Positions 3,450 through 61,704 of a stretch of 64,000 bases of DNA are shown here, piece after piece. Source of the DNA: an uncultured Planctomycetia bacterium (GTDB lineage Bacteria > Omnitrophota > Gorgyraeia > Tantalellales > Tantalellaceae); NCBI GenBank assembly GCA_964565425.1, contig CAZMEZ010000004.1:24907-88906 (forward strand), given 5' to 3'. Numbering within the stretch: the stretch's first letter is position 1; each line of letters begins with the position of its first letter. The notes beneath the pieces were generated by a model. That model ran no database searches. It was not told where the DNA came from and saw nothing but the letters and a program-made list of their open reading frames with translations. A program made the position numbers and the translations under genes.

Positions 3450-3483
3450 CAAGATCCCGTAAAGTAGCTGTTTGAAGAGACTC

Positions 3484-3522
3484 GGGCAGAGGCCCCGCGG
3501 GCTTCTGCCCTGTCTGTTTTTT
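3484..3522 (+). terminator. rho-independent terminator candidate
   Basis: A 12-bp GC-rich stem (gggcagaggccc / gggcttctgccc) with a 3-nt loop, followed by the U-rich tgtctgtttttt. Confidence 0.6.
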
Positions 3523-3542
3523 AACCGGAAAGGACGCATGTT

Positions 3543-4808: not shown

Positions 4809-4830
4809 CGCGATGTTGTGTGACGCTTTT

Positions 4831-4920
4831 GTCGTCCGTCGTCCGTCGTTCGAATTTCGGTACAGTTGGCACTTATCGCAGAGTGTAACACGGCATTCGG
4901 ATCCCGAACGACGAACGACG
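4831..4920. repeat. hairpin-forming spacer element E1 with arms built from GTCGTYC / CGAACGA heptamers
   Basis: cgtcgtccgtcgttcg (4837-4852) is the reverse complement of cgaacgacgaacgacg (4905-4920) with 1 mismatch. It is related to the element at 8347-8422. Confidence 0.8.
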
Positions 4921-4936
4921 TAAATTAGAATAACTC

Positions 4937-6617: not shown

Positions 6618-7139
6618 ATGGCGATGAAGGCGCTTATCGTGATGGACATGCTCAATGATTTTATCGATGAGAAGGGACCGTTGTATTGCGGCGAAGAGAG
6701 CAGGGAGATGGTCCCTTTTATCGGCAAAAAGATAGAAGAATACCGGCGTTCCGGAGATAAGGTCATCTATGTGTGCGACGCGCACGCCCCGGACGATAAG
6801 GAATTCCGTATGTTCGCCGGCCACGCCGTGAAAGGGACGAAAGGGGCGCAGGTCATTGAGGCCCTGAAGCCGGGGGCATCGGATGTGGTCATCGAGAAGA
6901 CCACGGTAAAACCTTTTTACGGGACCGGGCTGGAAAGTGCCCTTGAAGAAATAAAGCCCGAAGAGGTCGGCGTAGTGGGCGTATGCACGTCGATCTGCAT
7001 CATGGAAGTGGTGAGCGAGTTGAGGGTAAGGGGATATAAGACGGTCGTGTATCGCGAAGGCGTAGCCGATTTTGACAAAAAAGCCCATGAGTTCGCTCTC
7101 GCGCGCATGGAGAAGGTGTACGGGGCGATTGTTGAGTGA
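6618..7139 (+). CDS. pncA: nicotinamidase / isochorismatase-family cysteine hydrolase
   Basis: Asp (MDMLNDF), Lys and Cys (GVCTSICI) triad context. The gene is adjacent to nicotinate phosphoribosyltransferase. Confidence 0.7.
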   Translation: MAMKALIVMDMLNDFIDEKGPLYCGEESREMVPFIGKKIEEYRRSGDKVIYVCDAHAPDDKEFRMFAGHAVKGTKGAQVIEALKPGASDVVIEKTTVKPFYGTGLESALEEIKPEEVGVVGVCTSICIMEVVSELRVRGYKTVVYREGVADFDKKAHEFALARMEKVYGAIVE

Positions 7140-7259
7140 TGGGTGATGAGTGATGGGCAAGGCGCTGGGCGCGAGGCGCTAGTGATAAGTGATATGTAAT
7201 ACGTGATACGTACTGGGGACTGGCAACTGGGGACTGGGGACTTTTCTTGTGACTTGCAA
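7134..7259. repeat. phased heptanucleotide array (18 consecutive related 7-mers)
   Basis: gagtgat gggtgat gagtgat gggcaag gcgctgg gcgcgag gcgctag tgataag tgatatg taatacg tgatacg tactggg gactggc aactggg gactggg gactttt cttgtga cttgcaa. The array starts on the pncA stop codon. Confidence 0.9.
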
Positions 7260-7272
7260 CTAAAGGAACCGC

Positions 7273-8334
7273 ATGACAAAATGGCAATACGGGAAGAGAC
7301 TGAAGCCCTCGGTCTTTGATATACCCGTCAGGAAGATAAAGAGCGGGTGGTACAGCGACAAATATTTCGTCCGGACAAAAAAGATACTGGAAAAGGATAA
7401 TAATCACGCCCGGGCACTCATGCAGGTTTTCTGCAGGAAGGATGCCGTGGTATGCGGCCTTGACGAGGCCATAGCCGTACTTAAGCTTTGCGCCGGCAGG
7501 CCGAAAGAGCTCGTCATAAAGGCGCTGTACGACGGCGACAAGGTAAAGGCCGGCGATACGGTCATGACGATAGAGGGCGACTACGGCACTTTCGCGCATC
7601 TCGAAACGGTTTACCTGGGAGTAATAGCCAGACCGACCGCGGTCGCGACCGCTGTCAGAAAAGTGGTTAAGGCGGCAAAAGGGAAAAAAGTCCTGTTCTT
7701 CCCCGCCAGGTTCGATCACTACAGGGTGCAGACGACTGACGGGTATGCCGCTTTCATATCGGGCGCCCTGGGGGTGTCCACGGACGCGCAGGGCCTCTGG
7801 TGGGGGGAAAAGGGGCTGGGGACCGTGCCTCACGGGCTCATCGCGGCTTACGGCGGCGACACGGTAAAGGCCGCGGTCGCTTTCGACAAGTATATGCCGA
7901 AGGACATACAGAGGATAGTGCTCGTGGATTTCGAGAACGATTGCGTGGGGACATCGCTGGAGGTCGCCGAAGCTCTCGGCGACAGGTTGTGGGCGGTCCG
8001 GTTCGACACGGCCGAAGACGTCCGGGACGTGTCGGTCAAAGGCAAAGGAAAAGATTCGTACGGCGTGTGTCCCGAACTGGTTTTCCGGGCCAGAAAGGCC
8101 CTTGATGAACACGGTTATAAGAAAGTGAAGATAATAATCTCCAGCGGTTTTAACGAAGAAAAGATAAAAAGGTTCATAAGACTCAAGGTTCCCTTTGACG
8201 CGGTGGGCGTGGGGTCGGCCCTCATGCGCGAAAAGATAGATTTCACCGCCGACGTGGTCAAGGTCCACGGGAAGCCGCTCGCGAAGATAGGGAGGAAGTA
8301 TAATCCGAATCCGAGATTGAAGGTAGTGAGGTGA
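7273..8334 (+). CDS. pncB: nicotinate phosphoribosyltransferase (short, archaeal-like type)
   Basis: 353 aa, with the YSDKYF start region and GVGS near the C-terminus. It is paired with pncA. Confidence 0.7.
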   Translation: MTKWQYGKRLKPSVFDIPVRKIKSGWYSDKYFVRTKKILEKDNNHARALMQVFCRKDAVVCGLDEAIAVLKLCAGRPKELVIKALYDGDKVKAGDTVMTIEGDYGTFAHLETVYLGVIARPTAVATAVRKVVKAAKGKKVLFFPARFDHYRVQTTDGYAAFISGALGVSTDAQGLWWGEKGLGTVPHGLIAAYGGDTVKAAVAFDKYMPKDIQRIVLVDFENDCVGTSLEVAEALGDRLWAVRFDTAEDVRDVSVKGKGKDSYGVCPELVFRARKALDEHGYKKVKIIISSGFNEEKIKRFIRLKVPFDAVGVGSALMREKIDFTADVVKVHGKPLAKIGRKYNPNPRLKVVR

Positions 8335-8346
8335 CGCGTGACGGTT

Positions 8347-8422
8347 CCGTCGTTCGTCGTTCGAAATTCGGACACTAATTACAAAGCGTAATGCGATATT
8401 CGAACCCCGAACGACGGACGAC
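8347..8422. repeat. hairpin-forming spacer element E2 (same family as E1)
   Basis: cgtcgttcgtcgttcg (8348-8363) pairs with cgaacgacggacgac (8408-8422). The segment gcgatattcgaaccccgaacgacg recurs at 62021-62047. Confidence 0.8.
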
Positions 8423-8460
8423 TAGCTTGAACCGTGAACGAAAAAAACACGGAGCGCAAC

Positions 8461-9807
8461 ATGGAAAAAGAAAAAATAGTGCTACTGGTCGACGATGACG
8501 AGACGGTTTGCGGTCTTCTCGAGAAGATCGTGTCCCCGATGGTCGAAGAGAAGGTGGTCTGCGCTTTCACCGGCGCGGAAGCGAATAATATCATAAAGAA
8601 GAAGGAGCTCGCCCTCGCTATACTCGATTATAAGCTGCCCGATACGGACGGCATAGAACTGATGAAGAAGATAAAAGCCGTCGATAACGAAGTTCCCGTC
8701 GTAATAGTGACGGGCTTCGGCTCCATAGAGACGGGCGTCGAGGCGATCAAGCACGGCGCGTACGACTATCTTTTAAAACCTTTCCAGCCCGAGAAGATAC
8801 ACGCCCTTGTCAGGGGGCTCGTAAATTACAAGAAGCTCCGGGAGGAGAACCTTGCGCTCAGGGAAGAGCTTGGTTTGAGATACAGCATGGGGCGCCTGAT
8901 AGGTAAAAGCGAGAAGATACGCAAGATCTACGACCAGATCCCGAACCTCGTGAATACCGATTCGACGGTCCTCATACAGGGAGAAAGCGGAACGGGAAAA
9001 GAACTGCTCGCGAGGGCCATTCACTCTAATTCGCCGCGCAAGGACAAGCCTTTTGTCGTAGCCGACTGCACGGCGCTTGCCGAGAGTCTGCTGGAAAGCG
9101 AGCTCTTCGGGCACGAGAAAGGGTCGTTCACGGGGGCCATACGCCAGAAGATCGGGAGGTTCGAACAGGCGGATGGCGGGACGATATTCCTGGACGAGAT
9201 AGGCGATATCTCCGCGGCGGCGCAACTTAAGCTGCTCAGGGTACTCCAGGAGATGACCTTTGAAAGGGTCGGGGGCGAAGAGACCATAAAGGTCGACGTA
9301 CGCGTAATAGCCGCGACGAACAAAGACCTGGACAGGCTCATGCAGGAAGGCAAGTTCCGGGAAGACCTGTTCTACCGTCTCAGCGTTATACCCGTATACA
9401 TGCCGCCGCTTCGTGAACGAAAGGTGGATATACCGTCGCTTGCCAGGTGTTTCGTTGACCAGTTCGCGGTAAAGAACGCGAAAAAGATAGAGAACATTTC
9501 CGACGACGCGTTCAGGCTGCTTATGGATCATGACTGGCCGGGCAACATACGCGAGCTCGAGAACGCCATGGAGAGGGCGGTTGTCGTAGCCCGTGGGAAC
9601 ATTATCCAGGAAGAGGACCTTCCGCCGAAAATATACAAGCAGCCGACAGGTGCCCCGGCGAGCAGTAATTCCCTTAAGGAGAACGAGAAATTCCTGATAA
9701 GCAGGGTGCTTGCTGAATGCGGTAACAACATGCTCAAGGCCGCCAAAGAACTCGGCATTTCCCGATCCACGCTTTACGGTAAGATGAAGAAGCTGGGGAT
9801 AAGATAG
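8461..9807 (+). CDS. sigma-54-dependent response regulator (receiver + AAA+ + Fis-type HTH; NtrC family)
   Basis: Receiver domain (LLVDDD, ILDYKLPDTDG), Walker A GESGTGKE, the ESELFGHEKGSFTGA (GAFTGA-type) loop, and a C-terminal HTH. ATG 8461 has GGAG 6 nt upstream. GTG 8434 is the longest possible start. Confidence 0.85.
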   Translation: MEKEKIVLLVDDDETVCGLLEKIVSPMVEEKVVCAFTGAEANNIIKKKELALAILDYKLPDTDGIELMKKIKAVDNEVPVVIVTGFGSIETGVEAIKHGAYDYLLKPFQPEKIHALVRGLVNYKKLREENLALREELGLRYSMGRLIGKSEKIRKIYDQIPNLVNTDSTVLIQGESGTGKELLARAIHSNSPRKDKPFVVADCTALAESLLESELFGHEKGSFTGAIRQKIGRFEQADGGTIFLDEIGDISAAAQLKLLRVLQEMTFERVGGEETIKVDVRVIAATNKDLDRLMQEGKFREDLFYRLSVIPVYMPPLRERKVDIPSLARCFVDQFAVKNAKKIENISDDAFRLLMDHDWPGNIRELENAMERAVVVARGNIIQEEDLPPKIYKQPTGAPASSNSLKENEKFLISRVLAECGNNMLKAAKELGISRSTLYGKMKKLGIR

Positions 9808-9908
9808 GCGTGAGTCGTAGGTCTTGAGTGTATTCGTATTGCGTCGTGCGTATTGCGTGATGCGTATTGCGAACGTAATTATTGATTAATAGTTATTGGT
9901 TATGACAG
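9804..9908. repeat. phased heptanucleotide array (15 units)
   Basis: ataggcg tgagtcg taggtct tgagtgt attcgta ttgcgtc gtgcgta ttgcgtg atgcgta ttgcgaa cgtaatt attgatt aatagtt attggtt atgacag. The array begins on the stop codon. Confidence 0.85.
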
Positions 9909-10161
9909 ATTGCCGCGTCGCTTCGCTCCTCGCAATGACAGAAGAGGGCGACCCCAACTATTTACCATTCACGCCCTCCCTGCTCAGGCCATCCAATCCT
10001 CCCAAAACTGTACGAAAATCATACAATACCCGCCATATAGCTGTATTTCGTAATATGTTTTAAATAAAGCACTTACGAATGCATAGTGATTCATTGTGTC
10101 CGAAATGCGCACATAGCACTTTATCAGACATTTTTCGTCGAATTTACCTTCAAAAGATCTC

Positions 10162-10174
10162 TTCCGTTACGGAA
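10162..10174. promoter_or_regulatory. perfect 13-nt palindrome, candidate enhancer (UAS) site
   Basis: TTCCGTtACGGAA lies about 80 nt upstream of the sigma-54 -24 element, in an AT-rich spacer. Confidence 0.2.
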
Positions 10175-10251
10175 TTCACGATTTAATCCATTTAGTTTAA
10201 ACCATTTATAACAATTAATAATGCGTGAGTTTTAGGCCGGTATCTTCACTT

Positions 10252-10267
10252 TGGCACGGTTGTTGCA
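10252..10267 (+). promoter_or_regulatory. sigma-54 (-24/-12) promoter
   Basis: TGGCACggttgTTGCA matches the consensus TGGCACG-N4-TTGCW exactly. It lies 55 nt upstream of ATG 10322. Confidence 0.75.
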
Positions 10268-10321
10268 ACTTTATATAAGTTGAAGCAATGGAACGGTCTT
10301 TAAAAGGAAAGAGGTGACAAG

Positions 10322-10822: not shown

Positions 10823-10852
10823 AAGAACACGGAAAGTCCATCGGCAGTAAAA

Positions 10853-10882
10853 AAGCCGGGCATGGCAGTGTCCGGCTTTTTT
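10853..10882 (+). terminator. rho-independent terminator
   Basis: aagccgg-12 nt loop-ccggctt followed by a T5 run. Confidence 0.65.
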
Positions 10883-10971
10883 GTATTGACGGCCCGAAAC
10901 GGATTTTGACATAATGATTCCAGGACGGGAGAAATTTCCGGTCCGGAACCTTTGCAAAAGGAGCCGATCTT

Positions 10972-12336
10972 ATGCCGGCGGATTACGGTATGGAAAGAAG
11001 CATGAGGCAGGTCCAGTATCTGTCCCAGCAGGCCCGGATAACGGTGCATATACTTCAGCTGCCCCTTCTTGAGCTGAGAGAGTACCTCGCGCGGGAACTG
11101 ACGGAAAATCCCATGCTCGAAGGAGACGAAGGGGAGCGGGACAGGGAGAACGTGGAGGATATCGAAAGCGCCAAAGAATACGACTTCATAACGAGAAGGT
11201 CGGGTGTTTACGACGAAGAAAGAGAAGAGAAGCGCAGGTACAGGGAAGCGCAGATAACCAAAGAAGAGACCCTCGAAGATCACCTCTTGTGGCAGCTGGA
11301 CATGTCCACCGAAGAAATAGATCACGGGATAGGGGAAGAGATTATAGGGGATCTTGACCGTAACGGATATCTCAGGTCCGATACCCGACGGATCGCCGAG
11401 AAGTTCTATGTTCCGCTCGAAAAGGTGGAGGAAATTTTGTTCCTGATCCAGGGGCTCCACCCGGCAGGGGTAGGGGCCAGGGACCTTAGGGAATGCCTTC
11501 TCGCGCAGCTGAGATCACAGGGCAAGGAAGATACCCTCGGTTACCGGATAGTGGAAACATGCCTTAAGGACCTTGAAAAAGGGGACGATGCGAGTCTCGC
11601 AAAAAAGCTTCGCGTAAAACAGGAAGATGTCGTGAAGGCCAGACAACTGATAAATTCGCTGGAACCCAAACCGGGAAGGATGTTCGCGCCCGGAGAAAGC
11701 GTTTGGGCCGTTCCGGATATAATTATCGAAAGGAAAGACGACAGGTTCAGCGTCAGCCTGAACGAACGGTTCCTGCCGAAACTGCGCCTGAGCTCTTATT
11801 ACTTAAAACTTCTGAAGGGCAAGAACGCGGATGATGATGTAAAGGGTTTTCTGGAAGAGAGGAAGACCAGGGCCCAGTGGGTGATAGAGGCGATCCTGCA
11901 AAGACGGGATACGATAAAGAAGGTCGCGGAATACATAGTGAATGTGCAGAAGGATTTTCTTGATGATCCGTGGGGCAGCGTCAAACCGCTTAAAATGGAA
12001 GAGATCGCCGAGGACCTGGGTGTAAGCAAATCGACAGTGAGCAGGGCGGTCGCGAAAAAATATGTCCAAACGGAATACGGGCTCCTGCCGCTCAAGCGTT
12101 TTTTCAGCACGGCATTGGCCGGGGAGAAGGGAGAAGATCTTTCGGCCGATCTTGTGAAGAAGAAGATCGGCGAAATGATCGCCGATGAAGACAAGCGAAC
12201 GCCGTTAAGCGATGCGGATATAGCCGGGCGGTTGGAAAAGGACGGGATAAACATAGCCCGCAGGACCGTGGCTAAATACCGCGAAGGATTGGGGATAGCC
12301 GCTCGTGGCCGAAGACGGAAAAAGCGGAAGGGCTGA
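10972..12336 (+). CDS. rpoN: RNA polymerase sigma-54 factor
   Basis: Gln/Leu-rich region I, an acidic region II, and a C-terminal RpoN box ARRTVAKYRE. An AAGGAG RBS lies 8 nt upstream. Confidence 0.9.
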   Translation: MPADYGMERSMRQVQYLSQQARITVHILQLPLLELREYLARELTENPMLEGDEGERDRENVEDIESAKEYDFITRRSGVYDEEREEKRRYREAQITKEETLEDHLLWQLDMSTEEIDHGIGEEIIGDLDRNGYLRSDTRRIAEKFYVPLEKVEEILFLIQGLHPAGVGARDLRECLLAQLRSQGKEDTLGYRIVETCLKDLEKGDDASLAKKLRVKQEDVVKARQLINSLEPKPGRMFAPGESVWAVPDIIIERKDDRFSVSLNERFLPKLRLSSYYLKLLKGKNADDDVKGFLEERKTRAQWVIEAILQRRDTIKKVAEYIVNVQKDFLDDPWGSVKPLKMEEIAEDLGVSKSTVSRAVAKKYVQTEYGLLPLKRFFSTALAGEKGEDLSADLVKKKIGEMIADEDKRTPLSDADIAGRLEKDGINIARRTVAKYREGLGIAARGRRRKKRKG

Positions 12337-13926: not shown

Positions 13927-13961
13927 GGATATAGGCCGTTTTGGCGGTCATGAAGCATTAA

Positions 13962-13996
13962 AGAGGGGCACACGGTATTTCAGGCGCCCCTCTTTT
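13962..13996 (+). terminator. rho-independent terminator candidate
   Basis: agaggggc-16 nt loop-gcccctct followed by tttt. Confidence 0.5.
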
Positions 13997-14032
13997 GACA
14001 TTTGACGTTGAATAACAGGATCCGGAGAACGC

Positions 14033-14956: not shown

Positions 14957-15075
14957 AAGACCCCCATCCTGATTGGCCATGACCCTACCCTAATGTATCC
15001 TTACTGGGCGACCAATATTCCTCCTTTTGATTATTTAACAAAAAGCGCTTCCAAAAACCCTATCCAAAAAACAAA

Positions 15076-15104
15076 TTGACAGTATCTTATGTATTTACTA
15101 TAAT
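15076..15104 (+). promoter_or_regulatory. consensus sigma-70 promoter (TTGACA-17 nt-TATAAT)
   Basis: Perfect -35 (15076-15081) and -10 (15099-15104) hexamers with a 17-nt spacer. The -10 ends 8 nt before ATG 15113 and no SD is present. Confidence 0.65.
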
Positions 15105-15112
15105 ACTGTTCA

Positions 15113-25243: not shown

Positions 25244-25586
25244 AGAGATCGCATAGCGCAAAGCGCATAGCGGTTCGCGATGTGCGGTTAGCGGGTCGAG
25301 AAAGTAAATAATAAGTGATACGTGATACGCAGGCTAGAGGCACGAGGCTAGAGGCACGAGGCTAGAGGCAAGAGGCAAGAGGCAAGAGGCGAAAGAAAGG
25401 CGTTGATTACGAAGATTAAGACGCAGACGATGATCTTAGATTACGAAGATCTGATCCCCGTAATCTATTTAAATCTTCGTAATCAAATTATATAGTACGC
25501 GTTATCTGTGATCATCTGTTTTAAATCTGTGCTCATCCGTGTTTTAAGGAAAAACGAACGACGAACGGCGAACAACGGACGACGAT
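25241..25586 (+). repeat. mosaic spacer A: heptamer arrays, a core element of about 100 bp, and a CGAACGA array
   Basis: The order is cgcatag words, gtgatac words, then a 14-mer/7-mer tandem at 25332-25389 (GAGG every 7 nt, 8 times). The core follows at 25389-25487, including a perfect 12-bp hairpin (gattacgaagat 25439-25450 / atcttcgtaatc 25473-25484). The spacer ends with gaacgac gaacggc gaacaac ggacgac. Confidence 0.9.
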
Positions 25587-27050
25587 ATGAAAAATAACAT
25601 GCGGGTTTATATAGTTACCGAAGGGGGCGAGGGTATCGGTTACGGACACGTAACGAGGTGCCTCTCGCTTTGCCAGGCTTTTGAAGGGGAGGGCATCTCT
25701 CCGATATTCATAATAAACGGGGATAAAAGCATTAAGAATATCATCGGCGGAAGGGACTGCGTGACGTTCAACTGGCTTAAAGAGGGGGAAAAGCTGCTGA
25801 AGATCATCGATGGTTCGGATATAACGATAATAGATTCCTATAAAGCGAGCCGCGCCATCTACGCGAAAATATCGGAACTGGCGCTTTTACCGGTCTTTCT
25901 GGACGATTACAAGAGAATAGACTATCCGGAAGGGGTCGTGCTGAACGGAGGCATCCACGCCGAAAGCCTTGCGTACCCCAGGAAAAGGGGGAAGACATAT
26001 CTTCTCGGCGCGAAATACGCTCTTTTGAGAAAAGACTACTGGAAGACCTCCGGCAAGAAGATCAGGAAGAGCGTTGAAAAGATACTCGTTACGTTCGGGG
26101 GGAGCGATACGGATAACTTTACCGCCGAGGTTCTTAAAGCGCTGGACGAGGCGTATCCGGAGATATCAAGAACGGCGGTTATAGGAAAGGCGTCCGGTAC
26201 GTCGCCCGTGGCAGGAAGGGCCGCGGGAGGCGGTACGCGGTTCGTTTTTGACGCGGATGCCGCGGAGATGAAGAAGGTCATGATGGAGGCCGATATCGCT
26301 GTCGCCGCCGCCGGACAAACCACATATGAACTTGCGGCGGTAGGTGTGCCCACGGTCGCGGTCTGCGTTGCCCCGAACCAGAAAATGAACCTTGTGAACT
26401 GGATGGAAAAAGGGTTTCGCGGCTGCGCGCTTGCCGGTCGCAGGATCCCGAAGGAGAAGGTCCTCGAAGGCGTGGAGTATTTTCTGCCTTACAAGAATAG
26501 AAGCGAATTTTATAAGAGCACCAGAGATCTTGTTTCCGCCGACGGGGCGCGCAACGCCGTAAAAGAACTGCTTGGCGCGTACGGTTCCGTTAAATTGAGA
26601 GGGGTCAAAAGGGACGATTGCCGTGATCTCTGGATATGGCGAAACCATCCCAGGGCGAGAAAATGGAGTTTTTGCCATGACGCGATAAGTTATCCCGACC
26701 ACGAAAAGTGGTTCGCCAAAAAGCTCGGGGATAGAAGGGCGCGGATATATATCGCTGAAGACATCCGCGGCCGAAAGATCGGGCAGGCGCGTTTTGAGGT
26801 GTTTCCCTCGAGCGCGATGATCAGCGTGAACCTGAACCCCATGTTCTACGGCAGGGGGTTCGGTTCAAAGGTAATAGAGGGCGCGACCCGGACCTTTCTC
26901 GAAGAAAGGCCGCAGGTAAAAGAGATAACGGCCGAGGTAAACGCGGCGAACATAGCGTCGATCAAGGCCTTTAAAAGAGCCGGATACGAGTTCTCGTCAA
27001 AGGAGCGGAAAGCCGGCGAGAACGCCGATATCTTCAAGTACAGGACCTAA
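25587..27050 (+). CDS. pseG: PseG-PseH fusion: UDP-2,4-diacetamido-2,4,6-trideoxy-beta-L-altropyranose hydrolase fused to a GNAT N-acetyltransferase
   Basis: N-terminal MRVYIVTEGGEGIGYGHVTRCLSLCQAF (PseG type) and a GT-B-like core. From about aa 335 (nt about 26589) a GNAT domain begins (RGRKIGQ...GRGFGSKVIE). Confidence 0.7.
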   Translation: MKNNMRVYIVTEGGEGIGYGHVTRCLSLCQAFEGEGISPIFIINGDKSIKNIIGGRDCVTFNWLKEGEKLLKIIDGSDITIIDSYKASRAIYAKISELALLPVFLDDYKRIDYPEGVVLNGGIHAESLAYPRKRGKTYLLGAKYALLRKDYWKTSGKKIRKSVEKILVTFGGSDTDNFTAEVLKALDEAYPEISRTAVIGKASGTSPVAGRAAGGGTRFVFDADAAEMKKVMMEADIAVAAAGQTTYELAAVGVPTVAVCVAPNQKMNLVNWMEKGFRGCALAGRRIPKEKVLEGVEYFLPYKNRSEFYKSTRDLVSADGARNAVKELLGAYGSVKLRGVKRDDCRDLWIWRNHPRARKWSFCHDAISYPDHEKWFAKKLGDRRARIYIAEDIRGRKIGQARFEVFPSSAMISVNLNPMFYGRGFGSKVIEGATRTFLEERPQVKEITAEVNAANIASIKAFKRAGYEFSSKERKAGENADIFKYRT

Positions 27051-27051
27051 A

Positions 27052-28077
27052 ATGGCGAAGAAGAAAAGATCCAACAGGTGTTTGATGGTAGCGGAGGTGT
27101 CAGCCAACCACGGCCGGAACTTAAGGCAGGCTGTGGCCATGATAAGGAAGGCGAAGGAATGCGGCGCCGACGCGGTAAAGTTCCAGACGTACACTCCGGA
27201 TACGCTTACGATCGATTCGGACAGGAGTTTCTTCAGGGTCAAACACCCCAAATGGAAGGGGCAGACGCTTTACCAGCTTTACGGGAAGGCATATACGCCC
27301 TGGGAATGGTTCGCGAAACTCAAAAAAACGGCGGATTCCGAAGGTATCATGTTCTTCTCGACCGCTTTTGACAGGACGTCGGTCGATCTTCTCGAGAAGC
27401 TCAATGTGCCCGTTCATAAAATAGCTTCGTTCGAGCTTGTCGACCTGCCGCTCATCGAGTACGCGGCAAAGACCGGTAAACCCCTGATCATGTCCACGGG
27501 CATGGCGACGAAGGCGGAGATAAAAGAAGCCGTGGATGTCGCGAGAAAGGCCGGGGCTAAGGATATAACGCTTTTAAAATGCGTGTCGAGTTATCCGGCG
27601 GAACCGCGCGAAATGAATCTCCTGACCCTGCGGGATATGAAGGAGAGTTTCGGCTGCCCGGTCGGCCTTTCGGACCACAGCATGGGGATAGGCGCATCGA
27701 TAGCCGCGGTTGCCCTGGGGGCGACCGTGATAGAGAAGCATTTTACCTTATCAAGGAAGATAAGGACGCCGGACAGCTTCTTCTCGATCGAGCCGGATGA
27801 GCTGGAAAGGCTCATCGTGAACGCGAGAATAGCGGAGAAGGCCGTGGGGAAGGTCCGTTACGGCCTTACCGGGGACGAAAAGAAGAGCAAGGCGTTCAGG
27901 CGGTCGCTTTTCGCGGTCAAGGATATAAAGAAAGGAGAAGTTCTCAACGCCGAGAACGTGAGGTCCGTGAGGCCCGCGAACGGCCTGAGCCCCAAATACG
28001 CGGACGCGGTTTACGGCAAAAAGGCGAAAAAAGGCATCAAAAAAGGCACCCCGCTGGGGTGGGAGCATATATCGTGA
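27052..28077 (+). CDS. pseI: pseudaminic acid synthase (NeuB family)
   Basis: MVAEVSANHGRNLRQAVAMIRKAKECGADAVKFQTY, GLSDHS, and a C-terminal SAF domain. Confidence 0.85.
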   Translation: MAKKKRSNRCLMVAEVSANHGRNLRQAVAMIRKAKECGADAVKFQTYTPDTLTIDSDRSFFRVKHPKWKGQTLYQLYGKAYTPWEWFAKLKKTADSEGIMFFSTAFDRTSVDLLEKLNVPVHKIASFELVDLPLIEYAAKTGKPLIMSTGMATKAEIKEAVDVARKAGAKDITLLKCVSSYPAEPREMNLLTLRDMKESFGCPVGLSDHSMGIGASIAAVALGATVIEKHFTLSRKIRTPDSFFSIEPDELERLIVNARIAEKAVGKVRYGLTGDEKKSKAFRRSLFAVKDIKKGEVLNAENVRSVRPANGLSPKYADAVYGKKAKKGIKKGTPLGWEHIS

Positions 28078-37942: not shown

Positions 37943-39649
37943 ATGGAGCGGCCTAAAATGGAAAAAATAAGAGATATACGCGAAGCTTTTGAAAGACCGG
38001 GATTGGCCCGGATAGTCGGGGCGCACGACGGGCTTACGGCGAAGCTTGTGGAGAAGAACGATTTTGACGGGGTGTGGGCGAGCGGCCTCGAGATATCCGC
38101 TTCCTACGCTATCCCCGACGCCAGCATTCTCACGATGTCGCAATACCTGGAAAGGGCCTGTGAAATGAAAGACGCGGTATCGATCCCCGTCGTCGCGGAC
38201 TGCGATACCGGATACGGCAATTCAAACAACGTGATACACATGATCAAGAAGTATGAAGCGGCGGGGATCTCCGGAGTATGCATAGAGGATAAGAGGTTCC
38301 CCAAAGTGAACAGCCTTCTCGCGGAAGGAAGGCAGGAGCTCGCTCCGATAGCCGAATTCGTGGGCAAGATAATGGCCGCGAAGAACGCCCAATGCTCGGA
38401 AAGGTTCATGGTAATAGCGAGGGTGGAAGCCCTTATAGCCGGGTGGGGGGAGCAGGAAGCCCTTCTCAGGGCCGAAAAATACGCCGAGGCCGGGGCGGAT
38501 GCCATCCTGATACATTCCAAGGCGAATACCGCCGATGAAGTCATAAGTTTCGCCCGAAAGTGGGACAGGAGGCTGCCTTTGGTCATAGTGCCTACCAATT
38601 ATCCGTCGGTCATGATGGATCTTGGTGAGAAGGAGCTGCTTGATCTGGGCATAAAAATGGTGATCTTCGCGAATCAGGGATTAAGAAGCGCTATCAGGGC
38701 CATAAACGACACTTTCGCCGAGATAAAACAGGCGGGAGGCATACATACGGTGGATGGGAAGATCGTCAGTCTTGATGAAGTTTTCCACCTGCAGGGCATG
38801 ACCGATTTCAAGAAGCAGGAGAAGGAATACCTGAAGTCGGAGAATGAAGATGTTGCCGTTATCATGCCCGCTGCCGGGAAACCGGCCCACCAGGATTCCA
38901 TCGTGCCGCTGCTCACGGACAGGCCGCTTTGCATGATAGATATCAACGGGAAGACCCTGCTTGAAAGGAATCTGAACACCCTGAAGGAATTGCGTATCAA
39001 GAACGTGAATATGGTTGTCGGCTACAAGAAAGAGAGCATCCTCAAGGGGCTCGACCTGGACGGCATAAATCTCATCACGAACGACGATTACAGGACCAAA
39101 CACCTGCTCCATTCCATCATGCTTGCCGAGCGGGAGATGAAAGACAGGACGCTTATAGTCTACGCCGACATACTGTTCGATAAGAATCTCGTCAGCAGGA
39201 TCCTGGGTCTCAAGGAGGACATAGTCCTGGTGGGGGATAACACCTACAAGAAGTATGGGAAACGCAACAAGAAACTCGAGCTGATCAAAACATCCGAACC
39301 CATGACCACCGGCAAACGGGAGATCGCCAACGACGAACTTTTTAGCGTGGAGAGGATCGGCAGGGAAGTGGACGAGGCACCCTCGAATTTTGAATTCGCG
39401 GGCATAGCTTATTTGTCAAGGAAAGGGACGCAGTCGCTGAAAAGACTTTATTGCGAAAGGAAAAAAGAATTGGAAGGCGGGGACGAAAGGTTCCATGAAG
39501 CCGGGGGTTTCGACCAGGCGTCATTTACGGATATAATACAGGAAGCGATCGACAGCGGGATTTCGGTAAAGGTGTTGCCCGTGAATTCCGGTTGGATGGA
39601 GATACATGAATTCGAGGATTACAGGTTCGCCTGTGAAAAGATAAAGTAA
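37943..39649 (+). CDS. pepM: phosphoenolpyruvate mutase fused to a C-terminal nucleotidyl(cytidylyl)transferase domain
   Basis: IVGAHDGLTAKL, ADCDTGYGN and the diagnostic EDK-x5-NS motif (EDKRFPKVNS, nt 38285-38314). From about aa 303 (nt about 38849) an NTase fold begins (VAVIMPAAGKPAH...). Confidence 0.85.
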   Translation: MERPKMEKIRDIREAFERPGLARIVGAHDGLTAKLVEKNDFDGVWASGLEISASYAIPDASILTMSQYLERACEMKDAVSIPVVADCDTGYGNSNNVIHMIKKYEAAGISGVCIEDKRFPKVNSLLAEGRQELAPIAEFVGKIMAAKNAQCSERFMVIARVEALIAGWGEQEALLRAEKYAEAGADAILIHSKANTADEVISFARKWDRRLPLVIVPTNYPSVMMDLGEKELLDLGIKMVIFANQGLRSAIRAINDTFAEIKQAGGIHTVDGKIVSLDEVFHLQGMTDFKKQEKEYLKSENEDVAVIMPAAGKPAHQDSIVPLLTDRPLCMIDINGKTLLERNLNTLKELRIKNVNMVVGYKKESILKGLDLDGINLITNDDYRTKHLLHSIMLAEREMKDRTLIVYADILFDKNLVSRILGLKEDIVLVGDNTYKKYGKRNKKLELIKTSEPMTTGKREIANDELFSVERIGREVDEAPSNFEFAGIAYLSRKGTQSLKRLYCERKKELEGGDERFHEAGGFDQASFTDIIQEAIDSGISVKVLPVNSGWMEIHEFEDYRFACEKIK

Positions 39650-41234: not shown

Positions 41235-42392
41235 ATGATAGATTGTTCGGATTTTTTTGAAGCGCTTAAAAACAGGAACCTGGCCTTTTTCACGGGCGTT
41301 CCGGATTCTTTGCTCAAGGATATCTGCGCCTGTATTTCCGATAATACGGGACCGGGAAACAACATCATCGCGGCGAATGAAGGGAACGCCGTCGCTTTGG
41401 CTGCCGGTTATCACCTGGCTACAGGAGAGATAGGCACCGTATACATGCAGAATTCAGGGCAAGGGAACGCGGTCAACCCCTTGACCTCCCTGGCGGACCC
41501 CGACGTTTACGGGATACCCATGCTGATGATCATCGCCTGGAGGGGTGAACCCGGAGGGAAGGACGAACCGCAGCATCTTAAACAGGGAAAGATCACATTG
41601 GAGATGCTCGACACCCTTAATATTCCTTATTCTGTTTTGCCGGAGGACACGATGGGATCCGGGAAGGTCCTGGATAGAGCTGTTGGATATATGGGGGACA
41701 AAAAGGCTCCGTACGCGTTGATCGTCAGGAAGGGCATTTTTGGGCCATATGTTACGCGGGACGTTGATATGCCGACCGGCGGACTTATGAAAGAAGAAGC
41801 GCTTAAACTCGTGGTCGGGAGTGTAGGGGAGCGGGACGTGATCGTCTCCACGACGGGAACGACCTCGAGAGAACTCTTCGAGCACAGGAAAGAGATCAAA
41901 GAAGGCCAGGGGAGGGATTTCTTGACAGTCGGTTCCATGGGGCATGCTTCCTCCATTGCTTTGGGGATAGCGCTCAGGAAGAAGGAACGGGATATTTATT
42001 GTCTGGACGGCGACGGGGCGGCCATCATGCACATGGGAGCGCTCGCCGTTATAGGCGACCAGTGCCCCCAGAACTTCAGACACATCATTTTTAATAACGG
42101 GGCCCATGATTCCGTGGGAGGGCAACCGACTGCCGGGTTCAGGATCGATTTTCCGGCTATCGCCATGGCTTGCGGGTACAAGGCGGCATTCAAGGCGGAA
42201 AACGCGGAGGAGATAGTGGAAAAGATGTCTTTATTGCGGGAGATTGACGGCCCGGCCCTGTTGGAAATAAGGGTAAGGAAAGGCTCGAGAAAGGACCTGG
42301 GACGTCCTTCGGTATCGCCGGTAGAAGGGAAAAAAGCTTTTATGGATTTTTTGTTCGAAAAGGATAAAGATCGCCAATCTCCGGAGGGATAG
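41235..42392 (+). CDS. ppd: phosphonopyruvate decarboxylase
   Basis: MIDCSDFFEALKNRNLAFFTGVPDSLLK start typical of Ppd/AepY, and the ThDP motif GDGAAIMHMG...NNGAHDS. Confidence 0.8.
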   Translation: MIDCSDFFEALKNRNLAFFTGVPDSLLKDICACISDNTGPGNNIIAANEGNAVALAAGYHLATGEIGTVYMQNSGQGNAVNPLTSLADPDVYGIPMLMIIAWRGEPGGKDEPQHLKQGKITLEMLDTLNIPYSVLPEDTMGSGKVLDRAVGYMGDKKAPYALIVRKGIFGPYVTRDVDMPTGGLMKEEALKLVVGSVGERDVIVSTTGTTSRELFEHRKEIKEGQGRDFLTVGSMGHASSIALGIALRKKERDIYCLDGDGAAIMHMGALAVIGDQCPQNFRHIIFNNGAHDSVGGQPTAGFRIDFPAIAMACGYKAAFKAENAEEIVEKMSLLREIDGPALLEIRVRKGSRKDLGRPSVSPVEGKKAFMDFLFEKDKDRQSPEG

Positions 42393-43513
42393 TGTTGAAT
42401 TATCGCATGCCGACGAACATAAATTTTGGTAAAGATTGCCTGGCCGGTCTGGCCGATGTTATCGCGCCTGGCCCGGCGGGGAAAGTCCTTGTTTTCACGG
42501 GAACAGGATCGGCTAAAATTTCAGGCGCTCTTGACCGTATAACCGGGATATTGTCCGGGTGCAACCCGGTCTTTTTTGAAGGTATAGAGCCCGATCCCGC
42601 CTTAGAGAGCCTGGAAAGAGGCATAGAAGTGTGCAGGCGGGAGGTCCCGGACCTCATCATAGCGGTCGGCGGAGGCAGCGTTATCGATTACGCGAAAGCG
42701 GTTTCCGTCCTGGCGGGGGAAGAAGGGGAAGTGTCGGATTTCTTCAGGGGCGGACGGAAACTAAAAGGCGGCAGGGCCGCGTTTATCGCGGTCCCGACCA
42801 CTTTCGGCACTTCGAGCGAGATAACCCCTTACGCGGTGATGACCGATACGGTAAACGGTATCAAGATCACCCTGGAAGACGCGAGCATATTCCCGGACCG
42901 GGCGTTCATTGACCCGAAATTTACCTTGACGATGCCGGAAGAGCTCGTGGCCGCCTCCTGCGCGGATCTCCTGTCCCACGCTGTCGAGGCGTACTGGAAC
43001 GTGAACGCCACGGAACTCACGGATATTTTCGCGTTGCAGGCCATAAGAACTTTCATGGGATCCTACAAGCGGACGTTCGAATCCCCCGCCGATACGGCAG
43101 CCAGGGGAAGGATAGTCCTGGCGGGCATATGCGCCGGATTGGCTTTTTCGAACACCAGGACAACGGCGTGCCACTCCATCTCATATCCGATGACCGCTGT
43201 CTTCGGCGTGCCTCACGGCATGGCATGCGTTTTAACGCTGGGCGAGATGCTGGAGTTCAATTCGACGGCTAGCGGGGAAAAGCTCCTGGCGTTGTGCGGC
43301 GCCATGGATTGCGGTGATGTGCGGGAAGCGAAACAGAAAATAGGATCTATCCTGAAAGATCTGCGCATTAAAACAAGATTAAGGGATTACGGCCTGAAAA
43401 AGGGCGATCTTGCCCTTATCCTGGACAAGGGGTTCACCCCGGAGAGGATGGCGAACAATCCCGGTAAGGTCACCAGGGACGACCTGGAAAAAATGCTGGA
43501 GAGGATATATTGA
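42392..43513 (+). CDS. iron-containing (group III) alcohol dehydrogenase; phosphonoacetaldehyde reductase by context
   Basis: GGGSVIDYAKA and the metal His cluster HSISYPMTAVFGVPHG. The start is uncertain (GTG 42392, TTG 42395 or ATG 42407). Confidence 0.7.
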   Translation: MLNYRMPTNINFGKDCLAGLADVIAPGPAGKVLVFTGTGSAKISGALDRITGILSGCNPVFFEGIEPDPALESLERGIEVCRREVPDLIIAVGGGSVIDYAKAVSVLAGEEGEVSDFFRGGRKLKGGRAAFIAVPTTFGTSSEITPYAVMTDTVNGIKITLEDASIFPDRAFIDPKFTLTMPEELVAASCADLLSHAVEAYWNVNATELTDIFALQAIRTFMGSYKRTFESPADTAARGRIVLAGICAGLAFSNTRTTACHSISYPMTAVFGVPHGMACVLTLGEMLEFNSTASGEKLLALCGAMDCGDVREAKQKIGSILKDLRIKTRLRDYGLKKGDLALILDKGFTPERMANNPGKVTRDDLEKMLERIY

Positions 43514-46660: not shown

Positions 46661-47701
46661 ATGAACATAGAAAATCTGATAGACAGCCCGTTGAAAAAGG
46701 AAGGGGATATATGGTACGGCCCCGAGGGCGGGTACTGGTCCAACCTGGAGAGGTCCAAGAGTGAGATCTATCTGAAGGACCTGGAGGCCCTGGGTTCGAT
46801 GGAGACCATGAAAAAATATTTTCCGCAGCACGGGGACGTCATTTCCCTGAAAAGGATGGGCGGGGCCGCGACACTTGACCTTGCCCCGGGCGAAAAGGTG
46901 CTTGACGCGGGTTGCATGTGGGGAGCGCTCGCGGTGCCGCTTGCCAGGACACGGGCGGAGGTCATTGCGGTCGACCAGACCAGGGAAAGCATGCTGTTCC
47001 TGGCCAAAAGAAAGGAAGAAGAGGCCCTGGAGAACCTGCACCTGGTGTGCGGCGACCTGAAGGAAATAAAATTCAGGGAGAAGATTTTCGATAAAGTGAT
47101 CGTGAACGGCGTGCTGGAATGGGTCCCCGAAACGCAAACGGTCGAGGTGGGGAATTTTATCAGGCGGAAAAATCCTTTCCTCGAGAACCTGAAACTCCTC
47201 TTCTCGAAGCGGGAGAGAAAGGATTCCCCGAGGGAAAAACAGCGTCGTTTCCTGGGTAAGATACAAAGGGCGCTCAAGGATGACGGCACCCTTTACCTGG
47301 CGATAGAGAACAGGTACGATGTTTTTTATTTCTTCGGTATTCCCGAACCGCATTGCGGGATCAGGTTCATTTCGCTCTTGCCGCGGTGGGCGCAGGACAT
47401 CCTGTCGCTGCTCCTCAGGGGGAGGAGGTTCAGGTTGTGGACTTATTCGAAAAAGGAACTGGAGGACCTGTTGCGCGCGTCCGGGTTCTCGAAAATAAAG
47501 TTCCATTACGCTTTTCCGGATTATAAGGAACCGGAGCAGGTCTTGACGGATGAAGGGATGGAACTCTTCAGGTATTGCAAATCCGCGGGAGATAAGCCGT
47601 TCTATAAAAAGGCCGTCCTGCGGTTTATCGAGGAAGTCGTGTTCAAAAGGATGAAACTGACGTTCTTCGCGCCGAGCTTTATCGTGCACGCGGAGAAGTG
47701 A
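46661..47701 (+). CDS. class I SAM-dependent methyltransferase
   Basis: VLDAGCMWGALAVPLA motif I. The internal ATG 46661 avoids overlap with the upstream gene (the track gives 46577). Confidence 0.7.
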   Translation: MNIENLIDSPLKKEGDIWYGPEGGYWSNLERSKSEIYLKDLEALGSMETMKKYFPQHGDVISLKRMGGAATLDLAPGEKVLDAGCMWGALAVPLARTRAEVIAVDQTRESMLFLAKRKEEEALENLHLVCGDLKEIKFREKIFDKVIVNGVLEWVPETQTVEVGNFIRRKNPFLENLKLLFSKRERKDSPREKQRRFLGKIQRALKDDGTLYLAIENRYDVFYFFGIPEPHCGIRFISLLPRWAQDILSLLLRGRRFRLWTYSKKELEDLLRASGFSKIKFHYAFPDYKEPEQVLTDEGMELFRYCKSAGDKPFYKKAVLRFIEEVVFKRMKLTFFAPSFIVHAEK

Positions 47702-47865
47702 TAAGCAATAAGTGATAGGTGATAGGTAATACGTGGGCGAAAGGCTAGAGGCGAAATTGATTACGAAGATTTTGAAGTAGACGATAATCTTAGATTACGA
47801 AGATGTAATCTCCGCGATCTCATTTAAATCTCGTAATCAACGAAAAACGAATAACGCAATACGAA
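47698..47865 (+). repeat. mosaic spacer B: GTGATAR words, core element and NAACGAA words
   Basis: gtgataa gcaataa gtgatag gtgatag gtaatac, then the core at 47743-47841 (53 nt at 47743-47795 identical to 61580-61632), then caacgaa aaacgaa taacgca atacgaa. Confidence 0.9.
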
Positions 47866-47918
47866 TTTAGCCGGGATCTTAAAGTTTACGGCTTACAGCT
47901 GACAAAGAAAGGTATGAT

Positions 47919-59383: not shown

Positions 59384-59782
59384 TCCCTGGTTTCCAGTTG
59401 CCAGTCCCCGGTAAAATTCACAAGATACCAGATACTAGATACAAACTTCATTCCCGCTACTCATCACCTATCGCGTATTATGTATTACTTACTTTGTACG
59501 TCCCTTTAGCCCCTCGCCTTTAGCCTCGTTACTCGTCGTTCGTTTTTCGTCGTTCGTCGTTCGTTGTTCGTTAAAACACGGATGATCACTGATATTGCGT
59601 ATTACGTGAGTTGATCGCGGAGATTTAAATGGGATTACGGAGATTACATCTTCGTAATCTAAAAGAGGGTGTCAAACTGCAAATCTTCGTAATCAACGCC
59701 TTTCTTCCGCCTTTATCCTTTAACCTTTATCCTTTAACCTTTATCCTTTAACCTTTATCCTTTAACCTTCATCCTTGCCTCA
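59381..59782 (-). repeat. mosaic spacer C: same word families and core as A/B/D but in inverted orientation
   Basis: tagtccc tggtttc cagttgc cagtccc ... gtcgttc gtttttc gtcgttc gtcgttc gttgttc, then the core (reverse complement) at 59610-59711, then the 14-mer cctttatcctttaa repeated 4.6 times at 59710-59774. Confidence 0.9.
59502..59659. repeat. left arm of the long inverted repeat bracketing the priming transferase gene
   Basis: 59570-59659 is the reverse complement of 61418-61507 with 1 mismatch in 90 nt. The match extends to 59502 with two short indels. Confidence 0.9.
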
Positions 59783-59853
59783 TTGCCCTGCGCCAAGCCC
59801 CATGCTCCATACCTGTCCGCTGGACGCCGGACGCTGCCCGCTGAACTAAACCG

Positions 59854-59882
59854 TTGCATCAAATCCCCATTAGCGATAAACT
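59854..59882 (+). promoter_or_regulatory. candidate sigma-70 promoter (TTGCAT-17 nt-TAAACT)
   Basis: Located inside the IR-bracketed segment, about 50 nt upstream of ATG 59930. Confidence 0.25.
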
Positions 59883-59929
59883 ATTATAATATTGCTTATG
59901 GCACAAACATATGTAAACGGCAGGAAGAG

Positions 59930-61342: not shown

Positions 61343-61704
61343 GGGTATCGCATAGCGCTAAGCGCATAGCGGGTTAAGTGATGCGTGATACGCAGGCTAA
61401 AGGCAAGAGGCGAAATTGATTACGAAGATGTAATCTCCGTAATCCCATTTAAATCTCCGCGATCAACTCACGTAATACGCAATATCAGTGATCATCTGTG
61501 TTTTAACGAACAACGAACGACGAACGACGAACGACGAAAAACGAACGACGAGTAACGAGGCGAAAGGCTAAAGGCGAGGGGCTAGAGGCGAAATTGATTA
61601 CGAAGATTTTGAAGTAGACGATAATCTTAGATCGCGAAGATCCGATCTCCGTAATCCCATTTAAATCTCCGCGATCAACATAATGAACCCAAGACCCAAG
61701 ACTA
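61343..61704 (+). repeat. mosaic spacer D: two core copies (61395-61467 and 61580-61679) separated by CGAACGA and AGG-ending heptamers
   Basis: It reads as 51 successive related heptamers from 61344 to 61700 (catagcg ctaagcg catagcg ... aacgaac aacgaac gacgaac gacgaac gacgaaa aacgaac gacgagt aacgagg cgaaagg ctaaagg cgagggg ctagagg ... acccaag acccaag). Confidence 0.9.
61418..61588. repeat. right arm of the long inverted repeat
   Basis: Reverse complement of 59502-59659 (see the left-arm entry). Confidence 0.9.

Follow-up and report, generated by a model that had tools for sequence, protein, structure and literature searches.

Heptanucleotide microsatellites in the intergenic spacers of an Omnitrophota genome, probably grown by slippage and spread in blocks

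The 126 nt segment at positions 7134-7259 of a 64,000-nucleotide stretch of DNA from an uncultured Omnitrophota bacterium (GenBank assembly GCA_964565425.1, contig CAZMEZ010000004.1; the whole stretch is referred to as the window) consists of five short heptanucleotide arrays, and lies in an intra-operon spacer between an isochorismatase-family hydrolase gene and a nicotinate phosphoribosyltransferase (NAPRT) gene. We propose, with a probability of about 0.7, that this segment and its kin elsewhere in the window are heptanucleotide microsatellites of the type described as short tandemly repeated repetitive (STRR) sequences or long simple sequence repeats (LSSRs), grown by slippage and spread between spacers in blocks. 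The arrays have a period of 7, are restricted to non-coding DNA, differ between paralogous copies by 7 nt indels, and undergo turnover of their words between close relatives. Blocks of arrays have also been copied between spacers as parts of longer dispersed repeats, so that different spacers have the same words in the same order.

The phylum Omnitrophota belongs to the Planctomycetes-Verrucomicrobia-Chlamydiae (PVC) group, and the best named homologues of the NAPRT protein are 84-88% identical and are encoded in Candidatus Omnitrophota or Omnitrophica genomes with a shared gene order. As originally noted, this is a sigma-54-encoding bacterium, with rpoN at 10972-12336 and a gene for a sigma-54 enhancer-binding protein at 8434-9807. 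To our knowledge cyanobacteria lack sigma-54, and judging by its genes the host is not a cyanobacterium. Nearly all genes of the window are on the + strand.

The flagged spacer and the period-7 signal

The letters at 7134-7259 were re-read and match those quoted in the original prediction, which parsed the segment as 18 units without a phase slip. In that frame, neighboring 7-mers differ at three or fewer positions in 13 of 17 pairs, whereas 20,000 shuffles of the segment give a mean of 1.6 similar pairs and a maximum of 8, and Tandem Repeats Finder (TRF) reports four period-7 arrays within it. The unbroken phase does not hold: the four module junctions are at distances of 4-6, which is random-like, and the GTGAT motif shifts register by 4 between 7136 and 7182. 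Phase continuity across differing words carries no meaning, and the segment is better described as a series of separate modules, all of which, like the flanking genes, are given here on the + strand.

The upstream gene (6618-7139; Pfam PF00857, E = 3.5e-34) encodes the isochorismatase-family hydrolase, and its TGA stop codon (7137-7139) falls within the first heptad unit, GAGTGAT. Array 1 (7134-7157) has about three GTGATGG-type units at distances of 1 and 1 from one another (TRF 7136-7157, period 7, 3.1 copies), and is followed by array 2 (7158-7182; TRF 7160-7182), with about 3.3 units of AGGCGCT / GGCGCGA. Array 3 (7182-7211; TRF, repeat family D10) has 4.3 units of GTGATAY / GTAATAC, and this module is seen again at 25305-25329, 47695-47735 and 61375-61393; its GTGATAY block is 92% identical to 47711-47735 and 84% identical to 25305-25329 by blastn, a search in which a coding control sequence gave no matches. 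Array 4 (7212-7242; TRF) has 4.4 units of ACTGGGG, which is, as had been pointed out, the exact reverse complement of the cyanobacterial STRR1 unit CCCCAGT, with an exact STRR1 dimer at 7226-7242. An inverse, degenerate copy of this module is located at 59384-59413 (inverted repeat I10, 84%; 83% by blastn), and related ACTGGNN arrays are present in the relatives L037 and L042. Array 5 (7243-7259) has the two units CTTGTGA CTTGCAA, and a 16-mer of it recurs at 3760-3775 of L037 with 16/16 identity. The conserved ribosome-binding region AAAGGAACCGC (7260-7272), which is unpaired in the predicted fold, then precedes the ATG at 7273 of the NAPRT gene (7273-8334; Pfam PF02749), whose homologues bear that name in Omnitrophota metagenome-assembled genomes.

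No promoter-like or terminator-like site was found in the flagged spacer, and Rfam 15 gave no match at gathering threshold anywhere in the window. Permissive Rfam scans of 7100-7300 and 59384-62094 returned sub-threshold eukaryotic and archaeal families, far under their gathering scores and probably by chance. A CRISPR array, which has direct repeats of 24-48 nt with unique spacers of similar length between them, was ruled out, as the units are 7 or 14 nt long and stand head-to-tail without spacers.

The excess lag-7 signal that the original prediction expected of the intergenic DNA is present. Taken together, 17 spacers (3,555 nt) have a lag-7 identity of 0.382, whereas their shuffles give 0.261 +/- 0.007 and at most 0.285 (z = 16.6). 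Identity is elevated at lags 14 (0.354) and 21 (0.309) as well, and stays at 0.24-0.29 for all others. Coding DNA shows nothing comparable, as had been stated, with a lag-7 identity of 0.239 +/- 0.007 in length-matched coding samples. TRF identifies 25 period-7 arrays in the window, and 23 of them are intergenic, within just 4,043 nt (6.3%) of non-coding DNA; about 17% of intergenic bases lie within period-7 arrays. Taken singly, the spacers 4809-4936, 7140-7272, 8335-8433, 25244-25586, 47702-47918, 59384-59782, 61343-61704 and 61963-62094 have lag-7 z scores of 4.6 to 10.3, and spacer 9808-10321 taken whole has a z score of 3.2.

Heptads are thus found at all of the coordinates originally listed, but the generalization to every long spacer fails, as about half are without them; there is no lag-7 signal in spacers 710-903, 10823-10971, 13927-14032, 14957-15112 and 63670-64000. 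Heptads are absent where spacers hold canonical terminators or promoters. Classic terminators occupy the non-array spacers 3450-3542, 10823-10971 and 13927-14032, and promoter-like or terminator-like sites in the array spacers are not above chance. The intrinsic terminators, with a GC-rich stem and a U-run, are at 3484-3520, 10850-10885 and 13960-13998, exclusively in heptad-free spacers, and a perfect sigma-70 promoter (TTGACA-17-TATAAT) is located at 15076-15104 within another heptad-free spacer.

Dispersed elements and growth in 7 nt steps

Arrays of the window are modules of dispersed composite and hairpin elements, which have the same order in several spacers and occur in both orientations. 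Repeat searches and alignment identify five copies of the composite element in the window, in both orientations and about 150-340 nt long, with the module order CGCATAG array, GTGATAY array, AGGCNAG array, non-heptadic core, and ACGAACG array. The 12-mer GATTACGAAGAT and its complement are the building blocks of this core, whose fold is a set of nested hairpins. Copy A (25244-25586, + strand) has CGCATAG, GTGATAC, about 10 units of AGGCTAG/AGGCAAG, the hairpin core, and an ACGAACG array that extends to the ATG at 25587; the PseG/GNAT protein encoded beside it has a best relative only 47% identical, and no orthologous spacer for comparison. Copy B (47702-47870, + strand) has the same order with 3 AGGC units, and 85.9% identity to 61551-61700. 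Copies D1 (61343 to about 61560) and D2 (about 61545-61704) are partial and in tandem (61343-61704, + strand; TRF, repeat search and alignment), and include an ACGAACG array at 61506-61551 and an AGGCGAA array at 61558-61593.

Copy C (59384-59782, - strand) is inverted, and forms inverted repeat I1, with 157 nt arms that are 90% complementary. It carries the inverse ACTGGGG module at 59384-59413 and a CCTTTAT/CCTTTAA array at 59710-59776 (4.8 copies of a 14 nt repeat, 98% matches by TRF), and the units of its whole AGGC array have shifted together, with AAGGTTA/AAGGATA in place of AGGCTAG/AGGCAAG.

The hairpin element is REP-like (for repetitive extragenic palindromic sequences), and its stem arms are inverse heptad arrays. 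The first copy (4831-4920, + strand; TRF, inverted repeats I12 and I22, fold and alignment) has GTCGTCC/GTCGTTC heptads in its 5' arm and CGAACGA heptads in its 3' arm. The second (8345-8422, + strand; fold and alignment) has CGTCGTT and AACGACG arms and a predicted folding energy of -36.8 kcal/mol (z = -3.9 for the + strand and -4.1 for the - strand). A third is located at about 130-215 in L037, the closest relative, and the element could be aligned over 4831-4920, 8340-8426 and L037 128-218. Predicted hairpins with z scores of -2 to -6.5 are found at 8335-8433 and in relatives (L037 2432-2549, L040 7189-7312, L040 8420-8565 and L042 7520-7640). Covariation is too thin to be informative with so few copies, with 0 compensatory pairs for the composite core and 2 for the hairpin element.

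Two further sets of arrays complete the picture within the window. A GTATTGC / GTCGTGC array, a 14 nt repeat, is at 9830-9871 (+ strand; TRF period 7 and 14, 91% matches), immediately 3' of the stop codon that ends the enhancer-binding protein gene. The 61963-62094 region (+ strand; TRF, I14-I20, D7) contains an AAGGTTA array that is the inverse of 59710-59776, half a hairpin element, and a GATTCAC/GACTCAC array.

The paralogous copies also differ in ways that point to growth by whole units. The reverse complement of 59496-59705 is 96.5% identical to 61386-61580 over 170 nt with two 7 nt indels, such that the shared arrays differ by exactly one ACGAACG unit and one 7 nt unit of the AGGC array. 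In copy A there are about 10 such AGGC units, as against 3 in copies B and D1, and higher-order 14 nt repeats that are 95-98% perfect are present at 25331-25390 and 59710-59776 (TRF). Such near-perfect pairs of variant heptads are readily interpreted as the signature of recent tandem amplification. The original prediction that the spacers grow by slippage or duplication of 7 nt units is thus supported by the 7 nt indels and the 14 nt repeats, but overlooked dispersal in ready-made blocks; given the dispersed modules, in situ slippage is half of the story.

Presence, absence and turnover in relatives

Arrays are present in 4 of 10 sampled Omnitrophota lineages, which for the most part do not share the same words even where the spacers are orthologous. 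The closest relative, L037 (= L038), has a NAPRT 93% identical to that of the window, an intergenic lag-7 identity of 0.45, and an orthologous NAPRT spacer of 118 nt composed of other words; the only part of the spacer common to the two is the AAAGGAACCGC region. L040 and L041 (NAPRT 88%) also have arrays, with a NAPRT spacer of 146 nt that again has other words, and both L037 and L040 have clear period-7 arrays between the isochorismatase and NAPRT genes. In L042 (NAPRT 86%) the arrays are in other spacers, and the NAPRT spacer is at least 115 nt long (181 nt from the homologous start codon). L001-L003 and L004-L007, with NAPRTs that are 89% and 87% identical, have no arrays in the DNA sampled, with spacers of 19 and 34 nt respectively, and intergenic lag-7 identities of 0.25-0.29 in L001, L002 and L004. 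L043, L044, L045 and L046 (NAPRT 87%, 86%, 84% and 77%) have no arrays in the approximately 8-20 kb of each, and their spacers are not orthologous. In a NAPRT tree, array-positive and array-negative lineages are interspersed.

The orthologous spacer of L037 contains a hairpin with a stem of about 28 bp and TGTGTCA and AACACAT arms (z = -3.9 and -6.5), and this TGTGTCA hairpin occurs twice in the L037/L047 genome, with 86% identity. The spacer 3' of the L037 NAPRT gene contains CTTGTGA/CTTGCAA and ACTGGTT/ACTGGCA, which are words of the window in another spacer and in another order. The arrays of L040 and L041 are composed of TAAGCGK and CGAACCA, and those of L042 include eight copies of CAGAAGA, inverse GTTAGTT and AACTCAC arms, and ACTGGTT/ACTGGAA. 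L040 also carries a tandem duplication of a 99 nt intergenic unit (2311-2602, 95% identity), a kind of repeat distinct from the heptads.

The short-read contigs of relatives end within heptad arrays, at L037 3828, L038 1484 and L047 1046. Gene callers push open reading frames (ORFs) into arrays (P0006, P0244 and L040 7233-7883), and several ORFs are overcalled: NAPRT as 375 aa versus 353, a GIY-YIG nuclease as 110 versus about 85, and a flavin mononucleotide (FMN) reductase as 216 versus about 190.

Interpretation, alternatives and significance

The most likely explanation is that the arrays arise and change in length by strand slippage during replication or repair, one 7 nt unit at a time or, where a pair of variant units has come to alternate, 14 nt at a time, and that they would in this manner have expanded the spacer in front of the NAPRT gene. 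Because 7 is not a multiple of 3, arrays can persist only outside of reading frames. They are probably transcribed within polycistronic mRNAs, since relatives have 19-34 nt spacers, no promoter or terminator signals are found in the array spacers, and canonical terminators and promoters sit in non-array spacers. Where inverse arrays face each other they would form long stem-loops that may stabilize or process the mRNA, as has been suggested for STRR hairpins between cistrons (hupS/hupL) in stabilizing cyanobacterial transcripts (PMC2670836). As for the flagged array, it is probably, and most simply, nearly neutral filler.

Several observations weigh against this explanation. Slippage is read from indel patterns rather than seen in action, and it gives no reason why the unit should be 7 nt rather than 5, 6 or 8. 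The strain pairs L037/L038 (100% identical) and L040/L041 (99.99% identical) are too alike to bear on variation in unit number. The word families ACTGGNN, CGAACNN and GTGATNN are shared across species in non-orthologous spacers, which could reflect selection for particular words. For the predicted hairpins, the antisense strand gives a fold that is equally good or better, and this fits inverted DNA duplication as well as it does an RNA function. The flagged spacer does not fold better than its shuffles do (z = -0.9 for the + strand and 0.0 for the - strand), so that a hairpin role cannot apply there; a structured-RNA reading of 7134-7259 was rejected on this basis. As to dispersal, for which recombination, gene conversion or a transposase may be responsible, a Pfam scan of 59 of the 60 gene-model ORFs of the window gave no match to a transposase, integrase or reverse transcriptase.

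Intergenic heptanucleotide repeats have been known since 1990, the STRR sequences of heterocystous cyanobacteria being reportedly the subject of Mazel et al. 1990. The arrays described here resemble STRR sequences (PMC2670836, PMC4692102) in having a 7 nt unit with tandem amplification (TRF, z = 16.6), several unrelated word families per genome, a location that is intergenic or between cistrons (23/25 arrays non-coding), and inverse arrays that form hairpins. They differ in that the arrays are short (2-10 units) with many words concatenated per spacer, and in the host, which is an Omnitrophota bacterium rather than a heterocystous cyanobacterium. STRR families have a genome-wide copy number of the order of 100 each; the stretch analyzed here is 64 kb of a 95.9-kb contig. 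STRR1 is present as one 4.4-unit array and the degenerate inverse copy at 59384-59413, and STRR2 (TTGGTCA) and STRR3 (CAACAGT) are absent from the window, L037, L040 and L042. Because the host is of another phylum and only one of the three named units occurs, these are not STRR sequences in the strict sense.

The arrays match the LSSR class in the features compared. As far as the 2007 survey of bacteria by Mrazek is related in PMC4679880 and PMC4692102, heptanucleotide repeats are the most abundant class of long simple sequence repeats, or long microsatellites, and polymerase slippage was proposed; the class so related has units of 5-11 nt with 7 dominant, non-coding enrichment, and a phylogenetically sporadic distribution. 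In the window, tracts are longer than composition predicts (per-spacer z up to 10.3), the unit of 7 predominates, with lags 7, 14 and 21 alone raised, and repeats that are not a multiple of 3 are kept out of genes. The survey predates Omnitrophota genomes, and the differences are the dispersed composite elements and a patchy distribution among very close relatives.

Other heptamer systems share some of these features. In Xanthomonas and Nostoc, the GGGAATC / GGGGA(T/C)T repeats (Rehm et al. 2015, PMC4692102) are likewise intergenic, with some inverted pairs, vary extensively in both length and sequence among close relatives and have no tie to gene function, but they constitute one G-rich family capable of forming G-quadruplexes, whereas there are about 11 families here and only ACTGGGG has G-runs; neither GGGAATC nor GGGGATT was found in the window. 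Marine Beggiatoaceae, some cyanobacteria and Bacteroidetes have TAACTGA direct repeats (MacGregor 2015, PMC4679880), which are similar in having 2-6 heptamer copies just upstream of starts, in spacers often without a canonical ribosome-binding site, and in a sporadic distribution spanning phyla. They differ in having a single dominant word, and the arrays here also start at stop codons and form hairpins; tandem TAACTGA was not found in the window, allowing up to 1 mismatch per 14 nt. Geobacter metallireducens has dispersed multicopy elements of 4-5 tandem heptanucleotides with a proposed regulatory role (PMC2700814). These are of fixed length with one consensus each (GGACCGG, MTYCTGA) and some are intragenic, whereas here the words and unit numbers vary and genes are avoided. 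Our literature search returned no paper linking Omnitrophota with heptamer or tandem intergenic repeats. Intergenic heptanucleotide repeats are a known class, to which Omnitrophota is added as an independent phylum.

REP sequences, bacterial interspersed mosaic elements (BIMEs) and REP doublets forming hairpins (REPINs) are dispersed extragenic hairpin repeats of proteobacteria that are moved by REP-associated tyrosine transposases (RAYTs), and roles in mRNA stability have been proposed for REP elements; REPINs are reportedly the subject of Bertels and Rainey 2011. The elements here are similar in being short, dispersed extragenic hairpins between co-directional genes, in both orientations and in composite mosaics, and those at 4831-4920, 8345-8422 and L037 130-215 are dispersed, imperfect palindromes of this kind. 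REP sequences lack an internal periodicity of 7 nt, however, whereas the stems here are tandem heptads, and no RAYT gene was found among the 59 ORFs of the window that were scanned.

We considered several alternatives to slippage and block dispersal. One is that the arrays are selected cis-acting elements in mRNA or DNA, either multivalent protein-binding sites, with S1-, Csp- or CsrA-like proteins as candidate binders as proposed for the TAACTGA repeats, or A/C-rich leaders without structure that adjust how the downstream cistron is translated. We think it unlikely, with some evidence in its favor. In 6 of 7 cases, drawn from three genomes, a sense-strand CGAAC-type array stops no more than 50 nt short of the start codon that follows, but in short spacers anything falls near a start codon, so that this positional bias is weak. 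No obvious Shine-Dalgarno sequence precedes several of the downstream genes (25587, 61705 and 62095), the same two spacers are filled in all four array-positive lineages despite full turnover of the words, the word families are seen again across species, and similar proposals have been made for Beggiatoaceae and Nostoc. On the other side, syntenic genomes of relatives keep the same operons with array-free spacers of 19-34 nt, indicating that the arrays are dispensable, and the words are wholly different in orthologous spacers of genomes with 93% identical NAPRTs. Copies of the elements also lie either way round with respect to transcription. The arrays have no significant excess of stop codons (179 versus 166 +/- 10 in shuffles), and a 'three-frame stop' function was rejected for this reason.

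It is less probable still that the arrays are passengers of non-autonomous mobile elements similar to miniature inverted-repeat transposable elements (MITEs), REP sequences or REPINs, with transposition as the main cause of heptadic spacers. The five composite and three hairpin copies have identities of 82-96% and lie in either orientation, the L037/L047 genome has dispersed copies of a second hairpin family, the filled spacers are insertions relative to the array-free relatives, and the contigs of relatives break inside elements. All of this speaks for transposition, but MITE-type ends cannot be defined, as the five composite copies have no common termini and their ends dissolve into variable arrays, and comparison of filled with empty orthologous spacers reveals neither terminal inverted repeats nor target-site duplications. 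In the 59 ORFs of the window scanned with Pfam there was no match to an integrase or transposase, nor to a RAYT (IS200/IS605-like Y1) transposase in particular. The composite core and hairpin motifs have no true match in the genome, metagenome, viral, plasmid and phage collections searched, and their absence from the last three suggests that the elements are not phage- or plasmid-borne. The 29 genome-contig loci that matched the composite-core motif were rejected as chance, being in unrelated taxa and without heptads, as was one metagenome-contig match of the hairpin motif, in coding DNA. Many arrays are moreover unique words tied to no recognizable element (for example 9830-9871 and 62053-62089), and the exact 7 nt indels and near-perfect 14 nt repeats show in-place growth too. 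Integron attC sites were also rejected, as neither an integrase nor core sites were found and the genes on either side are housekeeping genes in conserved synteny.

A role as contingency loci for phase variation of surface-glycan genes is very improbable. The richest arrays are in the polysaccharide cluster around the initiating sugar transferase gene (Bac_transf, 59783-61342), unit number varies between copies, and in this scenario the 157 nt inverted repeats would invert the transferase gene. These repeats (59503-59659 and 61418-61574; 90% complementary, ungapped) bracket the gene and belong to two composite copies in opposite orientation, and inversion by homologous recombination could in principle occur. 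Arrays are however found equally beside housekeeping genes (glgC, FMN reductase, NAPRT), none is within a reading frame or between recognizable -35 and -10 boxes, and with imperfect units in short runs of 2-10 copies they do not resemble typical hypermutable tracts. There is no site-specific recombinase gene nearby, and the strain pairs show no variation, though these are effectively identical strains.

Finally, chance, misassembly or a recent cyanobacterial import can be dismissed, for although one of about 11 word families is STRR1 and repeats are a classic source of misassembly, the signal is far above shuffles (z = 16.6), imperfect and diverse units are not typical of collapsed or chimeric assemblies, independent assemblies of relatives reproduce such arrays, STRR2, STRR3, TAACTGA and GGGAATC are absent, a single STRR1 match between about 11 families and three named heptamers has a chance of about 5% by a rough estimate, and the flanking genes and synteny are Omnitrophota-like.

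The neighborhoods of the arrays have some features of their own. A perfect sigma-54 promoter consensus, TGGCACGGTTGTTGCA, is located at 10252-10267, 55 nt upstream of a transglutaminase-like gene at 10322; it is the only sigma-54 match in the window, and lies between the enhancer-binding protein gene and rpoN. Heptad words containing TGGCA or TTGCA were rejected as sigma-54 promoters, as their spacing is wrong. The surface-glycan cluster (17743-62835) is very large and on one strand, with nonulosonic-acid genes (NeuB, 27052-28077; a PseG/GNAT fusion, 25587-27050; and cytidylyltransferases), a phosphonate branch (phosphoenolpyruvate mutase, 37943-39649; thiamine pyrophosphate-dependent decarboxylase, 41235-42392; and Fe-alcohol dehydrogenase, 42392-43513), and five B12-binding radical SAM enzymes.

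A stand-alone gene for an 85-aa GIY-YIG nuclease (61705-61962) is positioned between heptad arrays. An 84% homologue in L047 (689-1021), a contig of the metagenome that yielded L037, likewise has heptad elements on its flanks, next to other neighboring genes, and its homology to the window ends at the ORF ends; the gene may be mobile, landing in or bringing array-rich DNA. Directly after the ORF in L047 (972-1021) is the motif GTCATTGCGAGG..CGAAGC..GCAATC, which in the window is found alone at 9893-9942 (- strand; 78% over 50 nt), in the 514 nt spacer after the enhancer-binding protein gene, and may there be a relic of another GIY-YIG insertion.

For metagenome-assembled Omnitrophota genomes the practical consequence is that the arrays break assemblies and mislead gene callers. 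More generally, the array trait is on in some lineages and off in near neighbors of the same gene order, in lineages with 86-93% identity in a housekeeping enzyme and conserved synteny, and a trait so patchy among syntenic near neighbors allows a clean comparison through which the driver of heptad formation could be sought. A tentative extension of our explanation, which we consider rather doubtful, is that a lineage-specific trans-acting activity, such as a replication or repair enzyme or a protein with a 7 nt register, makes and spreads the heptads, and is shared with the repeats of cyanobacteria, Xanthomonas and Beggiatoaceae. If this were true, a contrast of gene content between array-positive and array-negative lineages could find the determinant and explain why the unit is 7.

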